Both the position numbers and the translations under genes were made by a program. The notes under the pieces are model-generated. The model did not search any database. It was not told the DNA's origin and saw only the letters and a list, made by a program, of their open reading frames with translations. DNA of 64,000 bases. It comes from a virus (taxonomy: Duplodnaviria; Caudoviricetes). Below, one piece after another: positions 12,215-52,894 of the stretch (positions within the stretch are counted from its first letter, which is position 1; the number at the start of each line of letters is the position of its first letter). Location of the stretch: positions 1,258 to 65,257 of the IMG/VR virus record IMGVR_UViG_2728369266_000003; one strand, written 5' to 3'.

Positions 12215-13281
12215 GGCTCGAACGCCGCTCTTCCTTCGGTTGGGGGCCGTCCGGCGGCGGCTACGCCAACCCCCGCAACGGACTCGTAGTCCACTACGAC
12301 GGCTCGAACCAGGGGCTCGCGGGGCGCAGCCACAGCGCGTGCCGCGCGTACTGGATCAACACTCGGAAGTTTCACGTCAACACCCGCGACTGGTCTGACA
12401 TCGGGTATTCGTGGGGAGTCTGCCCGCACAACTACGTGCTCGAAGGGCGGGGGCTGAACCGGGCGCAGGCCGCACAGCCCGGCGGCAACACCACCTGGTA
12501 CAGCGTCACGTTCATGTGCGGCCCCAACGAGCGCCCCACCGATGGCCAGATCACCGCGTTCCGGCAGCTGCGTGCCTACCTGATGGGCCGCGGCGTGGCT
12601 GGAGCGGTCTCCTACCACGGCCGGTTCATCCCCACCTCGTGCCCCGGAGCGATCCTCCGCGGCATGGTGACCAGCGGCGACCTCATCAACGGGTCGGCCG
12701 GCGGCTCCACTCCCGCGCGCCCGCGTCCCCTCGGCCGGCAGCACGCCTCCGGCACCCTCGTCGGCGGCCCCGCGAACGCCGCGGTCGTGCCCTACGGCAG
12801 CCCGGTCCTGAAGCGTGGCGCGGTGGCGGCGAACGTCGCCGCCGCCCAGGACGCCATCGTCCGCGCCTACGGCGCCGAGTCCGCTGACTGCCGCATCGAG
12901 GTCGACGGACACTTCGGCACAGCCACCGAACGGGCCGTCACCTACGCCAACCGCAAGCTCAAGACCAAGCATGGCGGGGTGTGGAACCGCGGCACCCACC
13001 AGGGGCTCCGGGCAGTCCTCGGTGGACCGATGGTCGCGTGGCACGTCGACGAGGACGTTCCGGTGCCCAGTCTCGTCAAGGGCGATACCGGCGAGCGGGT
13101 GCGGAACCTCCAGCGGCTGCTGATGCGCGCCGGGTACGACCTGCCTCGCTACGGCGCCGACGGCGACTTCGGGGAGGAGACCCGCGCGGCGGTCCTCGCC
13201 CTGAACCGGGCCTCCGGCACGACCCATGGCGGTGTGTACGGGCTCGGCACCGCCTACGCGTTGCTGCTCGCCCTGAGGTAG
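12211..13281 (+). CDS. Endolysin: N-acetylmuramoyl-L-alanine amidase with two peptidoglycan-binding domains
   Basis: VVHY, WSDIGYSW, LEGRG, H..TSCPG; DGHFGTATE and DGDFGEET repeats. Confidence 0.92.
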   Translation: MRLERRSSFGWGPSGGGYANPRNGLVVHYDGSNQGLAGRSHSACRAYWINTRKFHVNTRDWSDIGYSWGVCPHNYVLEGRGLNRAQAAQPGGNTTWYSVTFMCGPNERPTDGQITAFRQLRAYLMGRGVAGAVSYHGRFIPTSCPGAILRGMVTSGDLINGSAGGSTPARPRPLGRQHASGTLVGGPANAAVVPYGSPVLKRGAVAANVAAAQDAIVRAYGAESADCRIEVDGHFGTATERAVTYANRKLKTKHGGVWNRGTHQGLRAVLGGPMVAWHVDEDVPVPSLVKGDTGERVRNLQRLLMRAGYDLPRYGADGDFGEETRAAVLALNRASGTTHGGVYGLGTAYALLLALR

Positions 13282-43115: not shown

Positions 43116-44534
43116 TCACGCCGGGGCGGGTTCGGCGATCTCGGCGATCTCGTTGCAGAGCCTGCGCGAGGACCACAGGACCAGGCCGACCAGGTCCACG
43201 ACGTGGCTGTTGCTGGTTTCGTGGGCGGCGACCTTCATCGCCTGCTCCGCGGCGTCGGTCACGAAGGCGGTGAACAGGTCGACGGCCTGGCGCTCGGCGT
43301 CGTCGCCGCCGCGCAGCAGCCGCCGCAGGTCGTTCTCCCACTGCGGGCGGGCGGCGTCGACGGCGGCCCGCGCCGCTCCCGCCGCGACGGGTTCGCGGTC
43401 CCGCTGGTAGGCCTTCGCGGTGACCTCCCCGATGCCGTCCTCGGCCGTCTTCAGCATCGCGACCAGCCGCCCCAGGCGGGCGTGGGCGGCCGTCTCGGGC
43501 ACCAGCGCGGAGGCGGGCAGCGCGATCTCGCGGCGGGTGGTGTCTTCCACCGTCGCCCCGTGGAGGTTGGTGATCATCTCGGTGGTCTCCACCCCGATCA
43601 GTCCGTCCACGTGGTGGTGGCGCGCGGCCAGCCACCCCGCCACCGCCGGCGCGGCGTCGGCGTCTTCGTACAGGCCGGGGACGGTGAACTGCAGACCCCG
43701 GGCGCAGACCTCGCGGTGGCTCGCGCTGGCGGACTGGCCGCGCCCGATCAGCGGGTCGGGGTGGGACTTGAGGTCATCCCCGGCGCACACCACCACGGTG
43801 CGCACCATCCCGTCGTCGTCGCGAACCAGGCGGATGCGGCGGCTGGGCCAGCACAGGTAGTCCACCATCCCGGCCGGGGAGCGGTCCTTGCGGCGCTCGG
43901 TGACGGGCTCGGTGCGCTCCCACCAGCCCTCGCCGCGCGGCGCCTCGGCGCCGGGGGCGAGGTTGAGCAGCAGGGTGCGGCCCAGGTCGGGGCCCAGCAG
44001 CCGGGTGTGGGTGCGGCGCCCCACCGACCCCAGCGGCACCCCGGCCTCACGCCCGCCGCCGTGCTTGCCGCGGATGCCGCCGGTGTCATAGGCGTGGCAC
44101 CACACCAGCCACCGGGCCGCCTCGGCCGGACTCAGGGCGGTGGGGCGCGCCCAGGTCATCCCGCCGCCGCCGGCCCGCCCGTAGGCGGTGATCTTCTCCA
44201 CCGGGTTGAGGGTGCCCTCCACCGGGTCCTGGGCGAAGGGGCGGTCGGGGTCCAACAGCCGCCAGCGGCCGGCCCCGATGCGCTCCAGGGCGTCCAGGGG
44301 CAGCCCGCCCCGGTACAGGTCGCCCCACCGCCCATCGTCCACGGGCCCGCACAGGCGGTGGGCCACCGCCAGCAGCAACCGGAACAGCGCCACGGTCAGC
44401 GTGGGGTCCTCGGCGCATACGTCGCGGATCGCCCCGGCATCCTCCAGCGCCTGGCGCACCCCCACCTCCCCCACCCGCCCGTCGGCGTAGACCACCGGAA
44501 TCCACGGGTCGGTGAACAGATCCAGGTCACGCAT
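43116..44534 (-). CDS. cas8e: Orphan type I-E Cascade large subunit homolog (Cas8e/Cse1/CasA)
   Basis: DLFTDPWIPV, ALFRLLLAV, RPFAQ, LSPAEAARWLV..HAYDTGGI, LGRTLLLNL, YLCWPSRRIRL match Cse1 motif order. Confidence 0.85.
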   Translation of the reverse strand: MRDLDLFTDPWIPVVYADGRVGEVGVRQALEDAGAIRDVCAEDPTLTVALFRLLLAVAHRLCGPVDDGRWGDLYRGGLPLDALERIGAGRWRLLDPDRPFAQDPVEGTLNPVEKITAYGRAGGGGMTWARPTALSPAEAARWLVWCHAYDTGGIRGKHGGGREAGVPLGSVGRRTHTRLLGPDLGRTLLLNLAPGAEAPRGEGWWERTEPVTERRKDRSPAGMVDYLCWPSRRIRLVRDDDGMVRTVVVCAGDDLKSHPDPLIGRGQSASASHREVCARGLQFTVPGLYEDADAAPAVAGWLAARHHHVDGLIGVETTEMITNLHGATVEDTTRREIALPASALVPETAAHARLGRLVAMLKTAEDGIGEVTAKAYQRDREPVAAGAARAAVDAARPQWENDLRRLLRGGDDAERQAVDLFTAFVTDAAEQAMKVAAHETSNSHVVDLVGLVLWSSRRLCNEIAEIAEPAPA

Positions 44535-45006
44535 GGTCGGCCGCCCGCAGGACCGTGACGCCCTCGGCCTCGCCCTGGCGCACCCAGCCGCCCGCGGCGG
44601 CGTACCCGGCGGCTTTCAGCGCGGCGTCACGGCCGCGCCCGTCCAGCGCGATCACCTCCACCGACGCGGGGTCGTGCACACCGAACCCGTCGACGTCCAT
44701 GATGTGCAGCTCCTCGCCGAAGTCGTAGGCGACCCGCGTGACCTCGATGTCCTTCTTCATCTGCTGGTAGTCCCTCCAGATCTGGCTCAGCCGGGACTCC
44801 TTGAGGCCCAGCTCCTGCGCGGCGCGCCGCTGGGCGGCGGCCTTGCGGATGCCGAGCTGGCGCTCGACCTCCGCGCCGACGATGCGGGCCCGCTCGGCGC
44901 CGACGGCGTGGCTGACCTCGGCGGCGACCTCGGCGAGGACCCGCAGCCGCTCGGGCGCCTCCAGGGCGCCGATCGCCTCCCAGTCGATCGTGTAGTAGCT
45001 GCTCAC
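44527..45006 (-). CDS. HTH-containing protein with extra C-terminal domain (Aca-like position)
   Basis: QRRAAQELGLKESRLSQIW; 8-nt overlap with cas8e start. Confidence 0.75.
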   Translation of the reverse strand: MSSYYTIDWEAIGALEAPERLRVLAEVAAEVSHAVGAERARIVGAEVERQLGIRKAAAQRRAAQELGLKESRLSQIWRDYQQMKKDIEVTRVAYDFGEELHIMDVDGFGVHDPASVEVIALDGRGRDAALKAAGYAAAGGWVRQGEAEGVTVLRAADHA

Positions 45007-47152: not shown

Positions 47153-47397
47153 GGCGACGCCTCCAGGGTGAGCTCGGGCGCCCCGCCGAGGGGCGCATAG
47201 AGGGTGATGGTTCCGCACCCGGTCGGACACGACGCACGGAGGGTTATGTCACCGCAGGCCGCGGTGCGGGACTGGAGTGTCCATCCGGACAGGCACCCCT
47301 CCAGGTGGGTGTGGGTGGCCCACTGGGGTTCGGGTGGGGTGGCGGGGGTGCCGAGGGTCTGGTCGGCCAGCTCGGCGGCCCTGTCCGCGGCGCTCAT
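47149..47397 (-). CDS. Hypothetical protein
   Basis: Coupled ORF. Confidence 0.5.
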   Translation of the reverse strand: MSAADRAAELADQTLGTPATPPEPQWATHTHLEGCLSGWTLQSRTAACGDITLRASCPTGCGTITLYAPLGGAPELTLEASP

Positions 47398-47981
47398 GCT
47401 GGCACCGGCACAGCCGCGGCCCGCTGCGCGATCCGCTTCAGGTCCGCCTTGGGGAGGGTGATGGTCCCGAGGTGGGTCAGCCAGTGGCACCACACCGGCT
47501 CCAGCCCCGGGTTCCGCTGCCACTCGTCCTCGGACACATCGCTGCGGGTGTAGGCGGCGGTCCGCTCGGCGAGCGTCTGGAGGGTGGCGGCGGTGACCCA
47601 GCGGGCGTCCCGCGTCTCCCCCTTCTGTGGGCGGAGTGGGTACCCCTCGAACACGGTGGCTTCGTAGATCCACCAGTAGTGCCCCGCCTCACCGGAGTGA
47701 CCGTCCGGCAGGTACTGGGACGGGCCGCACCGGTTGGGACGCCACCCCTCGGCGACGAGGCGGTAGTCACTGACCGTCTGCCCGACCTCCTCGCTGACTT
47801 CGAAGGTGAGCGCTTCCTCGGGGCCGTCGAACTCGTCGAAGACGTGGCCGGCGACGGGCGCGACCCCGCTGGGTCCGTCGCCGTCGCGGGTGATGACGAC
47901 GTACTCGGGGCCGTCGTCGCCGGGGCGGGTGATCAGGATTCCGACGCTGTGCTGGTCGCAGCGCCACGGGTCCTTGGGCAC
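47394..47981 (-). CDS. Nudix hydrolase (divergent)
   Basis: CDQHSVG, PVAGHV...EVSEEVG Nudix-box variant. Confidence 0.75.
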   Translation of the reverse strand: MPKDPWRCDQHSVGILITRPGDDGPEYVVITRDGDGPSGVAPVAGHVFDEFDGPEEALTFEVSEEVGQTVSDYRLVAEGWRPNRCGPSQYLPDGHSGEAGHYWWIYEATVFEGYPLRPQKGETRDARWVTAATLQTLAERTAAYTRSDVSEDEWQRNPGLEPVWCHWLTHLGTITLPKADLKRIAQRAAAVPVPA

Positions 47982-48104
47982 AGGATCCTCCTCACGGCGG
48001 CTGCCGTCGATGATGACGGCGCCCACCGACATGTGGGTGGGGGTGGACCGTCCGGTCCCCCCGTCCGCCCCACACACGTTGGGGCGGCGGAGGCACTGGC
48101 ACGG

Positions 48105-49499
48105 TCAGTTGGTGCTGTCGGCGGACGTGGCCTCGGGCTCCGGTGAGGACTCCAGCCACTCCTTCACGTACCGGTCGACGGTCGACTTCGGCACTTCGGT
48201 GAGTCGGCTGATCTCTCCGAGCGTCATCTTGATTCCAGCCCGGCGAGCTTCCTCGAAGCGGGCAACGACGCGCTGCTTGCGCTCGTCCCAGTCGTCAGGG
48301 ACGTAGTCCGGGATCTCGATTTCGGGGGTGTCCGACGTCTTGGTGGGACGCTTCGCCGACGCGGTCTTGGGACGGCTCGACGGCTTCCCGGCGGCCGGCT
48401 TGGGACGGTTGGTGGGACGGGGGGCACGGGCCGCGGTGGGACGCTCGGCCGGCGTCTCATCGGGCTCGGTGGGACGCGGCTGCGGCACCTCCGTGGGACG
48501 GTCCGCCAGCGTCTCGTGGGACGGTCCGGTGAGACGCCCCACGGGAATGGTTGGGACGGTCCCGTGGGACGTCCCATTCGGGGTGTGTGGGACGGGGGTG
48601 GGACGGTCGAATGGGACGGTCTCGGGCGCCGTCTCACGGGGCTCGTGGGACGCCTCTGTGGGACGGTCCGCCGCGTCGGCTGGGACGGTGCTGTGGGACG
48701 CCTTACCCGCCCGCCGTGGGACGGCCATGGTGTCTCGCTTCTCGGCAAGGTGCAGCAGCACGCTCGCCAACCCGAGCACCAGAACCGGCAGCACCGACAC
48801 GAAGATCACCACCGGGGTGGGGGCGCTCGTCGGCTGGGATTCCAACGACAGCAAGTGGTAGGCGGCCTGCCCGACGGCGCCGATCACGAGGGACCCGATT
48901 GCGGAGCACCACGCGAAAAACCGGGCGCCACCAGTGACGATGCCGGACACGGCCACGTAGAGGGCGATCCCGGCGTAAGCCTCGATGCCGAGCGGGAGGG
49001 TGATCGACAGGTCCACGACGAGTCCGCCGCCGATGCCGGGCAGCAGGTTGACGGGGCCGAATCCGGCGAGGCGGCCGAGGCCGACCCAGCCGCCCCAGAT
49101 GGCGACGAACGCGGATGCGGCGACGAGTCCGACGACGCCTCGGAGGGTGTAGAGGGTGCGCTTGCTGGGGCCGTGGGACGACCAAGCACCCGTCCCACGG
49201 GGCGTCTCGTTGCGGGCGGTGGGACGCGTCCCATCCGCTGTCCCATTCTGCGTCTCATCGGCCTGCGTGGGACGAGTCTCAGTGGCCGTCCCAGTGGGGG
49301 TGTGGGACGGCGTGTTGGGACGGTGTGGGGCGGTGCCGTTCGGCGGGTCGTGGGACGCCCCGTGGGACGGCTGAGCGGTGTCGGTGGGACGCCCCTGTGG
49401 GACGGCCGTGGGACGGCTGTCGGGGTGTCCCATGGGACGGTCGGCGGGACGCGCGAGCGCCGTCTGCGGGACGGTCCCGGGCGGCGTTTCGGCGGTCAT
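48105..49499 (-). CDS. Spread/DUF2637-like membrane protein with low-complexity flanks and C-terminal HTH
   Basis: About four TM helices (LPLGIEAY, SVLPVLVLG); TLGEISRLTEVPKSTVDRYV. Confidence 0.75.
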   Translation of the reverse strand: MTAETPPGTVPQTALARPADRPMGHPDSRPTAVPQGRPTDTAQPSHGASHDPPNGTAPHRPNTPSHTPTGTATETRPTQADETQNGTADGTRPTARNETPRGTGAWSSHGPSKRTLYTLRGVVGLVAASAFVAIWGGWVGLGRLAGFGPVNLLPGIGGGLVVDLSITLPLGIEAYAGIALYVAVSGIVTGGARFFAWCSAIGSLVIGAVGQAAYHLLSLESQPTSAPTPVVIFVSVLPVLVLGLASVLLHLAEKRDTMAVPRRAGKASHSTVPADAADRPTEASHEPRETAPETVPFDRPTPVPHTPNGTSHGTVPTIPVGRLTGPSHETLADRPTEVPQPRPTEPDETPAERPTAARAPRPTNRPKPAAGKPSSRPKTASAKRPTKTSDTPEIEIPDYVPDDWDERKQRVVARFEEARRAGIKMTLGEISRLTEVPKSTVDRYVKEWLESSPEPEATSADSTN

Positions 49500-49566
49500 T
49501 TGGATCTCCAATCTGGGACGGTGCGGCGGTATCCCACAGGGGTCGGGTGGGACGGACGGTGGGACG
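48345..49566 (+). repeat. About 34 polar GGGACG (mostly TGGGACGS) hexamers in two clusters
   Basis: Hand count: 18 in 48345-48723, 16 in 49175-49566; only a few reversed. Confidence 0.9.
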
Positions 49567-49567
49567 G

Positions 49568-49666
49568 TCAGAAGGTGATGACGCCAAGGCCGACGAGCAC
49601 GGCGAAGGCGAGGGCTGCGATCGAGCCGACGATGCCGATCAGGCCGAGAGTGGCTTCGAAGTCCAT
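49568..49666 (-). CDS. 32-aa single-TM peptide
   Basis: AAGGAG SD; MDFEATLGLIGIVGSIAALAFAVLVGLGVITF. Confidence 0.65.
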   Translation of the reverse strand: MDFEATLGLIGIVGSIAALAFAVLVGLGVITF

Positions 49667-49677
49667 GACGCTTCTCC

Positions 49678-50100
49678 TTAGCGGGAGCCGATGACGGTGA
49701 TGGCGGCCGCAGCAGTCAGCGCGACCCGATGAAATGCCTGGTCAAGGTGCATTCGTCCACCTCGATCCCAGAACGGGCGCTTCCCGGCGGCGTCGACCAG
49801 GGCGAGGGAGTCCTGCTGCCGGTCCATGTAGTAGTGCGTCGCAGCGGACAGGGCCTGACCTGCGACGATGCTGGTTGGGTGCAGGCCCAGCTTGAAGACC
49901 TGGTTGGCGAGCAGGACAGCTGCGGTCGTGGTCGCGGTGTAGCTCGCGACGTGGCGGGCGCACGCGGCCGCTCCGTCGGCGCCGGGCTTGCCCTTGACCT
50001 GGGCGTCCTCGTCGCGCTGCACCCAGAAGTCGCCCGCCTCGTGGGCGACGTTGAGGGCGGCGAGGGTCGCGGCGAAGGCGGCGACTCGGGCGGGGTTCAC
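49678..50100 (-). CDS. DUF3307-like membrane protein
   Basis: HEAGDFWVQ, RHV, HYYMDR, DQAFH. Confidence 0.85.
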   Translation of the reverse strand: MNPARVAAFAATLAALNVAHEAGDFWVQRDEDAQVKGKPGADGAAACARHVASYTATTTAAVLLANQVFKLGLHPTSIVAGQALSAATHYYMDRQQDSLALVDAAGKRPFWDRGGRMHLDQAFHRVALTAAAAITVIGSR

Positions 50101-50140
50101 TTCATCCTCCTGGTTGCTGTGTGTAAACCTGAACTATGGT

Positions 50141-50284
50141 TTGTCTCTTGTCTCACCCGGTCGCGGGAGAGGGGGTCTAGCGGCCTCTGAGGCGGCTATC
50201 TGACGGCTAAAATGCGGACGAATCGTGACAAATGGGGCGCGCGTGCTGAGACAACGGCAGGGTTTGTCTCAGCCCTTTGTCTCA
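50141..50284. repeat. TTGTCTC(A) repeat cluster, candidate clt
   Basis: Direct copies 50141, 50148, 50264, 50277; inverted copy 50247; just downstream of traB. Confidence 0.7.
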
Positions 50285-50301
50285 CTACGGAGAGTCACAT
50301 G

Positions 50302-52518
50302 TCAGGCGGCACGGCGCTCCCACAGGCCACGCTGACCCGCCACCAACCGCACCGTCCCCGCCTCCGCCAGCTCGTCCAGCGCCCGGTTCACGGTGGCCCG
50401 AGAGCAGCCGAGTTCGGCCCGAACCGCAGCCTCGATGTCGCCGCGACGCTGTGGACCGGCTGCGAGCACAGCGAGGATCGCGTCGCGGGCACGGTCCCGA
50501 TCCGACTGGTCAACCTCGACGAAATCGGCGACGTTCGGGAACGCCACCACCACACCCGCCGACGGACGAGGGGCGACCGACGACCCTTCGCCGAACAGCA
50601 GCTCGCGGACCCCGAGCTTGCCGCCGAGGAACGCCGTCACCGCGTGCGCATCCTCAGCAGCCCGCTGCTCAGCGGACCGGTCGTGGCGCCGCGAGTACAC
50701 CCCACCCAACGCGAGGTCCACCGCGCGGGCGGCCTCAGGCTCCAGGGTCAGCGACGGCCCGACCGCCTGGATAAGGGCGCCGAGGTCTTCGTGGTAGCCG
50801 GCACGCCACATCGCGCGCCGCGCCTCCACGCTCCCCTCGTTGGTGGTCTCGTTCGCGGCGATGCCGTACCCGCCACCCCGAGGAAGCTCAGTCACGCTCA
50901 TCGGCGCCTTGGGGGCGATGGCGCCCCCGATCGCGTCCTGGGAGTACATGAGCGCCACGTTCGCGCTGAACAGGTTTCCCCTGATCACGCGCCCGGGGTT
51001 GCCGTCGCCGCCGAACGCGCCCATCCCCGTGTCCTGCGACGCCGCGATGACCGCGACACCGCACTTGCGGCCGATGCGGGTGAGTTCGTTGACGAGTTCG
51101 GCGTTGGTCCAGGTGCCGAGTCCGGCCGGGTCGGCATCCTCGTCGAGGTGCTGTGCCTGCGGGTCGATCCGCCGGTAGTCCGACAGGATCGTCATGTGCG
51201 ACTCATCCAGGATCAGCACCAGGCCCGGCCTGGACGGTGTGGGGGTGAAGCCCTTGCGGCGCATGGCGCGGTTGGTGCGCATCCGAACCCGCAGCACGAT
51301 CACCGCCGCCTCCAGGGCGATGCGGCGCAGTTCAGCGGTGGCGGAGGCATCCCAGTCGGCGGTGTCCTGGAGTGCGGGCTGGGTACCCTCCTGCCCGTCG
51401 ACGTACCAGTAGATCGTGCACCCCGACATCCGCATGCCGAGCGCGAGCAGGTTCAGCAACTCGCTCTTGCCGGACTTCTGGGCGCCGAACAGATACCCAC
51501 CGAGCAGGCTGTTGGGACGGTACAGGCCCCAGGTGTGCATGCCGACCCCATCGGAGTGGGGGCCGACGGTGATGTCCCCGGTCTCCGGGTCGTAGACGGG
51601 ATGCCCCATGATCGTGGGCACCCCATCGACGACATCGACGGGCACGATTCCGGCGGTGGGGGAGGAGTCGGTGATCCGCAGCAGCGCCAACTGCGGAGAC
51701 TCCGAATCGTGCGGACCGACCGTGATCATCCGCTTGGGGACGTTCAGGGCGACACTGATCTCCGCCACCATGTGCTCCAGAGCCTCCAGACCCCGACCGG
51801 TGGGCTTGAAGTGGATGGTCCACTCCCGGCCGTACTCGGTCTTGGCCTGGTCCGACAGCCAACTCCCGGACGCGGCGCCGTTGCGGGAGCCGATGTGCTC
51901 GGCCCACAGCGCCGCGATGTCGTCCACCTGCACGGTGGACGACATCGCGGGGGTCTGCGGGTGGTGGCCGATGCGGTGGATGCGCCACCAGTGCGCCGCC
52001 AGCACATACACCCCCACCAGCCCCGAAGAGGCCAACACCTCCCACTGGTCGGTGAGCGCGGCGGCGATGAGCCACACCCACGCCGCGGCACCGACGAGCA
52101 GCGCCCGCAGCGGGTGCTCCCGCAGCCACACCCCGGCCTCCAGCAGCCAGCCCTTCTCGGCGCGGCGGATGAGCGCGATCGTGGTCGAGATGGCCAGCGC
52201 GGTACCGGCCGAGGTGACGAAGGCGTTCGCTTCGGCGAGCAGGGCGAGTTCCTGGATCAGCCCGATCGCGGCGACGGCGCCGGCCGCGAGCCACGGCTGG
52301 TACTGGAGACGCAGCCGACGCCGCATGGACTCCTCGTCCACCTGCCGCAGCCGGACGAATGCCTCACGGGCGCGCACGTGCGCGGGCAGCCGCTCGGACA
52401 CCGCCTGCTCGACGGGCGCGCGCTGCTTCGTCTTCGCGGCGCGAGTCGACGCACGCCGCAGGTCACGCTGGAAATCTCCGATCAGGTCGTCGACCTGGCG
52501 GCGGGTCGTGGTCGCCAT
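50302..52518 (-). CDS. traB: TraB-like FtsK/SpoIIIE DNA translocase
   Basis: N-terminal TMs, Walker A GAQKSGKS, Walker B LILDESH, GRKCGV..IAASQ, C-terminal winged HTH. Confidence 0.85.
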   Translation of the reverse strand: MATTTRRQVDDLIGDFQRDLRRASTRAAKTKQRAPVEQAVSERLPAHVRAREAFVRLRQVDEESMRRRLRLQYQPWLAAGAVAAIGLIQELALLAEANAFVTSAGTALAISTTIALIRRAEKGWLLEAGVWLREHPLRALLVGAAAWVWLIAAALTDQWEVLASSGLVGVYVLAAHWWRIHRIGHHPQTPAMSSTVQVDDIAALWAEHIGSRNGAASGSWLSDQAKTEYGREWTIHFKPTGRGLEALEHMVAEISVALNVPKRMITVGPHDSESPQLALLRITDSSPTAGIVPVDVVDGVPTIMGHPVYDPETGDITVGPHSDGVGMHTWGLYRPNSLLGGYLFGAQKSGKSELLNLLALGMRMSGCTIYWYVDGQEGTQPALQDTADWDASATAELRRIALEAAVIVLRVRMRTNRAMRRKGFTPTPSRPGLVLILDESHMTILSDYRRIDPQAQHLDEDADPAGLGTWTNAELVNELTRIGRKCGVAVIAASQDTGMGAFGGDGNPGRVIRGNLFSANVALMYSQDAIGGAIAPKAPMSVTELPRGGGYGIAANETTNEGSVEARRAMWRAGYHEDLGALIQAVGPSLTLEPEAARAVDLALGGVYSRRHDRSAEQRAAEDAHAVTAFLGGKLGVRELLFGEGSSVAPRPSAGVVVAFPNVADFVEVDQSDRDRARDAILAVLAAGPQRRGDIEAAVRAELGCSRATVNRALDELAEAGTVRLVAGQRGLWERRAA

Positions 52519-52624
52519 GACACCTCCCTGGATTCGTTCGTGGTGGTCGGCTCGCAGCCCGCCCGAGCGGTGGCATCTCGGGCGAGGTGCCAGCCGGGCG
52601 CCCGCAGGGGGCGCACCGGATGGG

Positions 52625-52894
52625 TCAGTCGGCGGTGAGGAACTTCTTGTCGCCCGCGTCAGGGAACGCGGTGTAGGCGTCATCAACGCCCTTCATCCGC
52701 TGCAACTCGGATTCGGAGGCGCCAGCGATCCGGTACATCCGGGCGGCGCTGTCCTGCAGCTGGGTGTACTTGGCCAGGATCGACTGGCCGACCTGGCCCC
52801 GTCGCATCGCCTCCACGGCCTGGTCCAGGCTGACCATGTTCGACTTCGTCTCCAGCCGCAGGTTGGTGGTGAGAGACATCGCGTCCTGATACAT
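52625..52894 (-). CDS. Helical protein paralogous to C-terminus of upstream gene
   Basis: MRRGQVGQ...DAYTAFPDAGDKKF. Confidence 0.7.
   Translation of the reverse strand: MYQDAMSLTTNLRLETKSNMVSLDQAVEAMRRGQVGQSILAKYTQLQDSAARMYRIAGASESELQRMKGVDDAYTAFPDAGDKKFLTAD

Follow-up and report, generated by a model that had tools for sequence, protein, structure and literature searches.

We identified 34 same-strand copies of the DNA word GTGGGACG written in all three frames through the codons of a phage-plasmid gene, which encodes a membrane protein with a DNA-binding HTH tail. In relatives, the word follows that protein's own HTH rather than the neighboring DNA translocase TraB. The gene thus most likely carries the sites by which its product grips its own DNA, although binding and function are inferred. 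We found no published description of such an array.

A repeat array within a membrane-HTH gene

The array lies in a 64,000-nucleotide stretch (the window) of an 86.5-kb phage-plasmid. The relevant features of the window are as follows.

48345..48723 (+): sub-array A, 18 co-oriented (G)TGGGACG(G) copies in the DNA coding the C-terminal disordered linker, between the TM core and the HTH.
49175..49566 (+): sub-array B, 16 co-oriented copies, 13 in the N-terminal linker coding DNA and 3 (49515, 49549, 49561) in the 70-bp gap upstream of the ATG.
48105..49499 (-): membrane-HTH gene (N-linker, 4-helix TM core, C-linker, HTH), with an ATG at 49499 and GGAG upstream; the mechanical ORF runs to the TTG at 49511.
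48717..49166 (-): conserved TM core, 4 helices plus a short hairpin.
48108..48329 (-): C-terminal tri-helical HTH (C-terminal domain, residues about 395-468), recognition helix VPKSTVDRYVKEWL, the proposed reader of the array.
50302..52686 (-): TraB-like FtsK-type translocase of 794 aa, with N-terminal TM segments, Walker A GAQKSGKS, Walker B LILDESH and a C-terminal wHTH (about residues 700-794).
50141..50284 (+): four direct TTGTCTC(A) and one inverted copy (TGAGACAA on the traB strand), immediately 3' of traB.
49570..49668 (-): 32-aa single-TM peptide gene, read from the sequence, between the DUF3307-like and membrane-HTH genes.
49678..50100 (-): small membrane protein (DUF3307-like, phrog_2470).
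47394..48077 (-): Nudix gene directly downstream of the membrane-HTH gene.

The first-pass annotation reported about 34 same-strand GGGACG motifs in 48345-49566, in two clusters flanking the TM-coding core and with three copies upstream of the start codon, and this observation is confirmed. Besides the 34 copies, one more lies at 48298 on the same strand, and five are on the opposite strand in the region. The excess is purely local, as the whole window is not enriched (112 copies versus 120 expected from shuffles) and the per-strand density elsewhere of about 0.57/kb gives about 0.7 expected copies in 1.22 kb. The word is longer than first described. T precedes 32 of 35 copies and G precedes that T in 26 of 35, giving (G)TGGGACG(G) and the 9-bp form GTGGGACGG. 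In the 6.97-Mb genome the 7-mer has a density of 0.13/kb, and the two adjoining clusters are the only ones with more than three copies.

The ORF contains 32 copies, and 31 of the 34 array copies lie inside it. Copies are read as RPx (16), xVP (8) and xSH (8). The comparison with codon-shuffled sequence proposed in the first-pass annotation was carried out in two ways. Resampling synonymous codons from the element's own usage gives 3.9 +/- 1.8 copies (maximum 11 of 5000), and permuting the gene's own synonymous codons gives 8.8 +/- 2.3 (maximum 18). Arginine is encoded by the rare codon CGT in 57% of cases, versus 9.4% in reference genes. Arrays in relatives also exceed codon permutation.

Copy positions fall on an 11.65-11.72-bp lattice (11.65 bp in sub-array A, 11.7 bp in sub-array B). 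The Rayleigh R is 0.90 in each cluster, against a null maximum of 0.79-0.80 in 1000 trials, and the residual SD is 0.9 bp. Coherence across the 457-bp gap over the TM core is not significant by itself, because the period can be tuned within its error, and was rejected as evidence. Tandem Repeats Finder detects only short local duplications.

The membrane-HTH protein and its neighbors

The database version of the membrane-HTH protein (P0002, 303 aa) starts inside the TM core and is probably mis-called. Searches of the gene against PHROGs and Pfam gave nothing beyond a weak HTH_IclR hit, and the TM core has no Pfam family. The AF2 model of the core (pLDDT 86) had no Foldseek match in the PDB at E<=0.001, and a phmmer search of PDB sequences with the HTH gave only insignificant hits. 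The core nonetheless has 452 relatives among species genomes and 47 in IMG/VR. A word-indexed search with the HTH region recovered only the window's own protein, while an exhaustive HMMER search recovered the relatives P0123, P0124 and P0126, which carry the same or related words.

The 794-aa neighbor is homologous to Streptomyces Tra (hhalign against pIJ101 Tra, probability 95.5%, E=1.6e-8). The protein gives wHTH hits, but Pfam FtsK_SpoIIIE gives no hit to it and misses these TraB-like proteins, even the annotated P1312 gp63, so two custom profiles and an iterated HMM were used instead. A TraB-like gene lies beside the TM-core gene in 88 of 141 loci.

The first-pass annotation placed the array in a spread gene. 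This assignment rests on position only. A profile of the TM core shows no detectable similarity to pIJ101 SpdB (hhalign probability 0.1%), and tblastn of the core finds no Streptomyces plasmid. SpdB and SpdB2 (pIJ101, pSVH1; PMC4447253) are likewise oligomeric 4-TM membrane proteins in the tra/spd operon next to TraB, homologs are reported on actinophages, and SpdB2 binds dsDNA. SpdB2 binding is non-specific, however, and no site array is described.

The word follows the gene's own HTH

The annotation's interpretation is partly supported: selection on DNA rather than protein is well supported, but of the two binders that it offered, TraB is disfavored and the gene's own C-terminal HTH is favored. 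The annotation had proposed comparing the word across orthologs with different TraB proteins. In this comparison the word follows the HTH across different TM cores, different TraB classes and hosts of different GC content.

First, the same HTH accompanies the same word. The metagenomic gene P0123 (locus L149) has 60% HTH identity to the window's gene and an identical recognition helix, but its TM domain is unrelated (borderline DUF2637; no blastp similarity). It carries 29 cCGTCCCAc copies on the coding strand in two clusters flanking the TM domain, with two copies upstream of the ATG, frames of 12/8/7 and an 11.65-bp lattice (R=0.92). A Nudix gene follows the L149 gene, as it does the L031 gene described below. 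HTH relatives at 49% and 41% identity (L150 and L152) carry TG[GA]GACG and TGAGACGG arrays.

Second, the word itself appears to be under purifying selection. In the alignment of the window and L149 linkers, in which 10 of 17 sub-array A copies align to L149 copies, motif columns are 79-83% identical, spacers 49% and HTH-coding DNA 66%. The aligner anchors on motif copies, which inflates the contrast between motif and spacer columns, and the two linkers are alignable by descent. Since linker and HTH are physically adjacent, co-variation of word and HTH could partly be hitch-hiking.

Third, the word dissociates from TraB and from the TM core. The Murinocardiopsis locus L031 has the TM core closest to that of the window among the loci compared (193 bits) and the same TraB wHTH class (48.5 bits; RATVSRAIEVL versus RATVNRALDEL). 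Its own HTH is of the N-terminal PGRN...SRxxRLL type and its array is CCGGACC/GGTCCGG, like those of L004, L086, L096 and L097, which share that HTH. The N-terminal PGRN-type HTH goes with GGTCCGG in six loci. The 11.7-bp lattice is absent from GGTCCGG-type arrays. L150 has a window-type HTH with another TraB class. The window and L031 TraB recognition helices differ at 4 of 11 positions, so a change of TraB specificity is not excluded. Three Nocardia plasmids also carry such a gene. One (W01) has a clear GTGAACA array in the linker, the other two have weaker arrays, and all three have further clusters of the word in nearby non-coding DNA. None has a TraB-like gene by either of two profiles.

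A global Mantel-type correlation of motif similarity with own-HTH, TraB C-terminal and TM-core similarity over 32 array loci was weak, no better for the own HTH than for the TraB C-terminus (rho 0.19 versus 0.26), and confounded by GC-rich pseudo-arrays such as CCGCCA. We did not use it as support, and the case therefore rests on specific discordant pairs. Repeats next to the homolog in L001/L007 (Salinactinospora) are a CRISPR array rather than a linker array.

Alternative readers of the array

One alternative is that the array is an oversized clt, with TraB recognition (TRS) repeats read by the wHTH of the adjacent TraB, which would load there and pump the element in a fixed direction. Like the TRS repeats of Streptomyces clt loci (pSVH1, pJV1, pWTY27, pIJ101; PMC4447253; PMC3583192), which are 7-9 bp long, the word is short (8-9 bp), asymmetric, element-specific and present in co-oriented direct repeats, and traB lies 0.8 kb away. 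Reading from traB toward the array, the word has the GTCC polarity in the window, L004, L031 and L086, although L008 breaks this rule.

Known clt loci have 4-9 repeats rather than 34, and the 3-9 repeats of the named plasmids are mostly non-coding and lie at or just past the 3' end of tra. The array instead starts 736 bp past the traB stop, beyond two small genes. The canonical position, right after the traB stop, is occupied by the distinct 8-mer TGAGACAA in five copies (the TTGTCTCA fragment, 50130-50290). The same 8-mer, with four direct copies and one inverted, lies right after the traB stop in L031 (12818-12962) and is conserved with the TraB class. This repeat is the better clt candidate, or may be a regulator's operator. 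Together with the discordance between word and TraB class, these observations make the clt reading unlikely; TraB binding to the array and its requirement in cis for transfer were not assayed.

FtsK/KOPS systems also pair an 8-bp polar word with an FtsK-family motor in the same module. KOPS are dispersed genome-wide with replichore skew, whereas the copies here are concentrated in 1.2 kb. The plus-strand excess of TGGGACG outside the array (10 versus 2) is matched by the unrelated word TGGGACC (16 versus 2) and thus reflects coding-strand bias.

A second alternative is that the array is a partition centromere or iteron set read by another protein of the element, and lies in this gene only because the linker tolerates it. 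The regular helical register and two clusters of direct repeats recall R1 parC (2 x 5 11-bp repeats, bound by ParR), tubC (12-bp iterons, bound by TubR) and the P1 iteron clusters flanking repA. In Nocardia plasmids the gene sits next to parA and rep genes, but a separate palindrome, GCCCATATGGGC in 4-5 copies, lies beside parA.

Type II and III centromeres have ten or so direct repeats in an 11-12-bp register, split into two clusters and coated cooperatively by a small DNA-binding adaptor encoded next to them. Those centromeres are intergenic, their adaptors are soluble and their motors are actin- or tubulin-like; here the sites are overprinted on codons, the adaptor would be a membrane protein and the only nearby NTPase is TraB. 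No ParA (AAA_31) or ParB_N match was found on C12 or C18; ParM and TubZ were not searched. The array has no AT-rich or origin-like feature, and GC skew of the closed circle shows no informative change there. Since the word also follows the own HTH across elements whose other genes differ, we consider this reading improbable.

Finally, the word could act on the mRNA (CCGUCCCAC), or the repeats could be a by-product of slippage or of selection for an RPT/VP/SH-rich peptide. In favor of these possibilities, same-strand polarity is strict in the window and L149, the linkers are low-complexity, and a RapZ-C-like gene, annotated as an RNA-binding protein in related phages, lies 1 kb away. Against them, copies occur in three frames with spacings that are not multiples of three, exceed synonymous controls, and lie upstream of the ATG and, in relatives, in non-coding DNA. 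In L150, L152 and L031 the word occurs on both strands or on the opposite strand, and the helical-type lattice points to duplex DNA. These explanations are very unlikely.

A proposed membrane tether

We favor, with moderate confidence, a model in which the array is a set of about 34 double-stranded DNA docking sites for the C-terminal HTH of the protein that the same gene encodes. In this view, the sites are written into the only parts of the gene that tolerate them: the two disordered cytoplasmic linkers on either side of the 4-helix membrane core, plus the short leader. The product would be anchored in the membrane and probably oligomeric, with HTH domains on long flexible linkers that would coat the co-oriented sites in an 11.7-bp register. 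This would build a polar nucleoprotein filament holding the phage-plasmid at the membrane. The tether most likely serves segregation, or hand-over of the DNA to the adjacent TraB pump for spread through the mycelium, and may also feed back on the gene's own transcription.

Our analyses demonstrate DNA-level selection, the lattice and co-variation of the word with the own HTH, whereas binding, membrane tethering and the biological role are inferred. Specific binding was not measured, no protein-DNA complex was modeled and replicon stability was not examined. Thirty-four sites is far more than any known operator needs, and the data do not choose between a tether, a centromere, a transfer adaptor and a roadblock.

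A precedent is provided by SpdA2 of the Streptomyces plasmid pIJ101, a DNA-binding protein of the transfer/spread region that recognizes a specific site (sps) inside its own coding region; the pair affects segregational stability rather than primary transfer (Thoma et al., 2014; PMC4170104). The system described here differs in that sps is a palindrome present in 1-3 copies and SpdA2 is small and soluble, while the array comprises about 34 asymmetric co-oriented copies in three frames on an 11.7-bp lattice, in the linkers of a 4-TM membrane protein. A sequence relationship between the two proteins was not tested.

A more speculative possibility, which we regard as doubtful though not excluded, is that the membrane-HTH protein, its gene-embedded array and TraB form a previously undescribed three-part DNA segregation and spread system of mycelial actinomycetes. 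This would comprise a centromere overprinted on the adaptor's own linker codons, a membrane-anchored adaptor that polymerizes on it in an 11.7-bp register, and an FtsK-type pump as the motor. Swapping the HTH and rewriting the linker would then give each phage-plasmid or AICE a private address, much as incompatibility groups do.

How Streptomyces-type elements are kept and moved inside a septate mycelium is unsettled. TraB and clt explain entry, but what the Spd-region membrane proteins do is largely unknown. A membrane protein that carries its own docking sites in its own linker codons gives a concrete, testable link between element DNA and the membrane or TraB machinery. It also explains why these linkers have odd codon usage, which probably causes gene callers to misplace starts. 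More generally, this is a clear case of a long cis-acting array overprinted on coding DNA in three frames, with the disordered linker serving as free space in a genome limited by capsid size. The design is widespread, with the TM-core relatives in species genomes and viral contigs and many different words.

A transfer module on a circular, probable phage-plasmid

The window (C12:1258-65257) covers nearly all of contig C12 of the host assembly (65,257 bp), which has a GC content of 68.5% compared to about 74% for the chromosome. C12 joins contig C18 (21,431 bp) through identical 95-bp overlaps at both ends, closing an 86,498-bp circle of about 69% GC. The circle carries a portal gene, a tape-measure-like gene, and a Streptomyces-type transfer module. 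C18 contributes recombination and methylase genes and carries Dam methylase, GIY-YIG, PD-(D/E)XK, and HTH_3 genes. The element thus looks like a plasmid-prophage of the pZL12 kind and is probably extrachromosomal, and a short stretch of it matches phage ZL12. The element also encodes a lone Cse1/Cas8e homologue (43116-44615), and the host contigs hold dense repeat loci that look like CRISPR arrays (C4:280.5 kb, C9:356.3 kb, and C5:309.5 kb).

The transfer module lies on the minus strand, in the following order:

50302-52686, minus strand: TraB-like translocase of 794 amino acids
a 200-bp gap
two small membrane genes
48105-49499, minus strand: membrane-HTH gene, which carries the array
a Nudix gene

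The TraB-like protein contains N-terminal TM segments, Walker A and B motifs, and a C-terminal winged HTH (wHTH). A profile built from this protein and four relatives matches pIJ101 Tra with 95.5% probability.

A repeated word is written through the linker codons

The first-pass annotation described about 34 same-strand GGGACG copies running through this gene, and this observation held: we recovered 34 at the stated coordinates (48345-49566), where about 0.7 would be expected from the density elsewhere in the window. The window as a whole is not enriched, so the excess is purely local. The word is more fully (G)TGGGACG(G), and the two adjoining clusters found here are the only ones with more than three copies in the 6.97-Mb genome. 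Two further TGGGACG copies in the same orientation (47716 and 47735) lie inside the Nudix gene, about 400 bp beyond the end of the membrane-HTH gene.

The gene product consists of an N-terminal linker, a four-helix TM core, a C-terminal linker, and an HTH. The copies fill the two linkers and the 70-bp leader and avoid the TM core and the HTH. The database version of this protein (P0002, 303 amino acids, 48105-49016) starts inside the TM core. The atypical codon usage of the array probably misled the gene caller, and the same may hold for many relatives.

Within the open reading frame the word is read in all three frames, 16 times as RPx, 8 times as xVP, and 8 times as xSH, and it forces the rare arginine codon CGT (57% compared to 9.4%). 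Codon-shuffled controls had been suggested in advance as a check. Resampling synonymous codons gives 3.9 +/- 1.8 copies, compared to 32 observed, and even permuting the gene's own codons gives only 8.8 +/- 2.3. Tandem Repeats Finder detects only a few short local duplications.

Copies are spaced by 11-13, 22-24, 33-35, or 46-48 bp. Their positions fit an 11.7-bp lattice with R=0.90 in each cluster, compared to a null maximum of 0.79-0.80 in 1000 trials, and the residual SD is 0.9 bp. We do not count the apparent coherence across the 457-bp TM-core gap, because the period can be tuned within its error to produce it.

Linker arrays in a family of membrane-HTH proteins

The TM core has no Pfam family, no PDB fold match, and no detectable similarity to pIJ101 SpdB. 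It is nevertheless common in actinomycetes. We identified 452 relatives in species-representative genomes and 47 in IMG/VR contigs of about 40-67 kb, as well as Thermobifida phage P1312 gp062 and relatives on roughly 60-kb Nocardia and Cellulosimicrobium plasmids. An iterated profile that also recovers pIJ101 Tra finds a TraB-like gene beside the core in 88 of 141 loci.

The HTH can be N- or C-terminal and belongs to different HTH types, and a low-complexity linker always lies between the HTH and the core. Many linkers carry their own word.

Words carried by the linkers of relatives, with copy numbers
P1312 and two viral contigs: GGTC[CT]GGT, about 27
Nocardiopsis synnemataformans: C[AG]GTCCG, about 30
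Murinocardiopsis: CCGGACC, about 14
Nocardia farcinica plasmid: GTGAACAC, 8-11
Various viral contigs: CGTACCCG, GGGTATACCC, CCGGAAC, CGTCAGG, and others

Each array tested exceeds a synonymous-codon permutation. Words containing TGA use only two of the three frames, as expected if the linker is translated. The metagenomic relative P0061 repeats SSREFT / VNSRE peptides many times in its N-terminal linker, suggesting another, longer word (probably containing GTGAATTCAC-like sequence), although its DNA was not examined. In two chromosomal copies, from Murinocardiopsis locus L031 (7150-8438) and locus L008 (7230-8405), the N-terminal HTH and the TM core are in different reading frames, with the shift inside the array. 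This could reflect decay, an assembly error in repetitive GC-rich DNA, or frameshifting. Because the word is open in all three frames, the shifted linker remains open. The words GAGACG, YGGACCG, GGACA, CGGTACCG, and TGAGCC, taken from unchecked annotations, agree with this family-wide picture but were not used as evidence.

The array word follows the HTH of its own gene

The first-pass annotation proposed that the array is read either by TraB or by the gene's own C-terminal HTH. This interpretation was partly supported. Four lines of comparison separate the two candidates and favor the gene's own HTH.

First, the same HTH occurs with the same word. An exhaustive HMMER search with the C-terminal 79 residues found three relatives. 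P0123, encoded on a 2-kb metagenomic contig (L149), is 60% identical and has the same recognition helix, but its TM domain is unrelated (a borderline DUF2637 match with no blastp similarity). Its gene carries 29 cCGTCCCAc copies on the coding strand, in two clusters flanking the TM domain, with two copies upstream of the ATG. Frames are 12/8/7, and the lattice is 11.65 bp with R=0.92. As in the window, a Nudix gene follows. In the aligned C-terminal linkers, motif columns are 79-83% identical, compared to 49% for spacers and 66% for HTH-coding DNA, although the aligner anchors on the word, which inflates this contrast. Ten of 17 copies are positionally shared. Linker and HTH are adjacent, so hitch-hiking could explain part of the co-variation. 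The relatives at 49% and 41% identity (L150 and L152, the latter from a 57% GC organism) carry TG[GA]GACG and TGAGACGG arrays, partly on both strands.

Second, the same TraB class occurs with a different word; a comparison of the motif across orthologs with different TraB had been put forward beforehand. Among the loci compared, Murinocardiopsis L031 has the TM core closest to that of the window (193 bits), and its TraB has a C-terminal wHTH of the window's class (48.5 bits; RATVSRAIEVL compared to RATVNRALDEL). The two TraB helices are similar but not identical. The own HTH of L031 is the N-terminal PGRN...SRxxRLL type of P1312 and locus L004, and its array is their word, GGTCCGG. The GGTCCGG arrays lack a lattice. 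A global correlation over 32 loci is weak and does not favor the own HTH over TraB. The locus pairs L064/L098 and L014/L133 show the same pattern as L031, on weaker arrays.

Third, arrays occur without TraB. Three Nocardia plasmids and one Cellulosimicrobium plasmid have no TraB-like gene by two profiles that find seven matches in the host genome. The N. farcinica plasmid (W01) nevertheless has GTGAACA clustered in the linker and in two nearby non-coding stretches. The other two Nocardia plasmids have weaker linker and intergenic clusters of a related GAACA word, and the Cellulosimicrobium plasmid has no clear array. Between parA and the membrane-HTH gene, the Nocardia plasmids (L089 and L090) also carry 4-5 copies of the palindrome (T)GCCCATATGGGC(A) near a divergent ParA operon. 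This palindrome is distinct from the linker word and is a likely par operator or centromere.

Finally, the clt position is occupied by a different repeat. Immediately after the traB stop, the window contains the following feature:

50141-50284: the 8-mer TGAGACAA, four direct copies and one inverted copy

L031, from Murinocardiopsis flavida, has the same 8-mer, in the same number and arrangement, right after its own traB stop (12818-12962). L031 also shares a GntR-like gene with the window, so TGAGACAA could be either the clt of this TraB class or the operator of a shared GntR-like regulator. Other TraB classes have their own repeat clusters directly 3' of traB: GTGAC[GA] in both orientations in L004 (9100-9260), L008 (6800-6980), and L086 (5650-5810), with GTGAC[GA] repeats also in L096 of the same class, and GTGTTCCG in L150 (7710-7840). 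These class-specific repeats fit published clt loci, which have 3-9 repeats at the 3' end of tra. This looks like a general rule that could be used to predict clt sites.

A proposed membrane docking site

The papers that we could search describe clt, TraB, SpdB2, and SpdA2/sps, but not a multi-copy array overprinted on the linker of a membrane-HTH gene, and the P1312 genome paper does not mention the repeats. The nearest published precedent is pIJ101 SpdA2, which binds a palindrome inside its own gene and affects stability. The system described here differs in the many copies of its word and in their placement within the linkers of a membrane protein.

With four TM helices, both termini of the protein lie on the same side of the membrane. 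That side must be the cytoplasm, since the HTH is there, an inference that rests on the predicted structure. Weak IclR, HTH_23, sigma-r4, and HTH_7 hits indicate a small tri-helical HTH. Placed on a flexible linker of 130-150 residues, this domain could reach and coat an asymmetric 9-bp site repeated every 11.7 bp. Co-oriented sites in a register slightly longer than the helical repeat are what cooperative adaptor filaments use on parC- or tubC-type centromeres.

We therefore read the array as the docking site that ties the element to its own membrane protein. While the copies, their lattice, and their excess over synonymous controls are direct observations, docking is inferred from comparison, and nothing has been shown to bind. 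The module sits next to TraB in most loci, and no AAA_31-type ParA or ParB_N match was found on the circle. The likely role is thus segregation, or hand-over of the element to TraB for spread across septa, and autoregulation by roadblock is possible as well.
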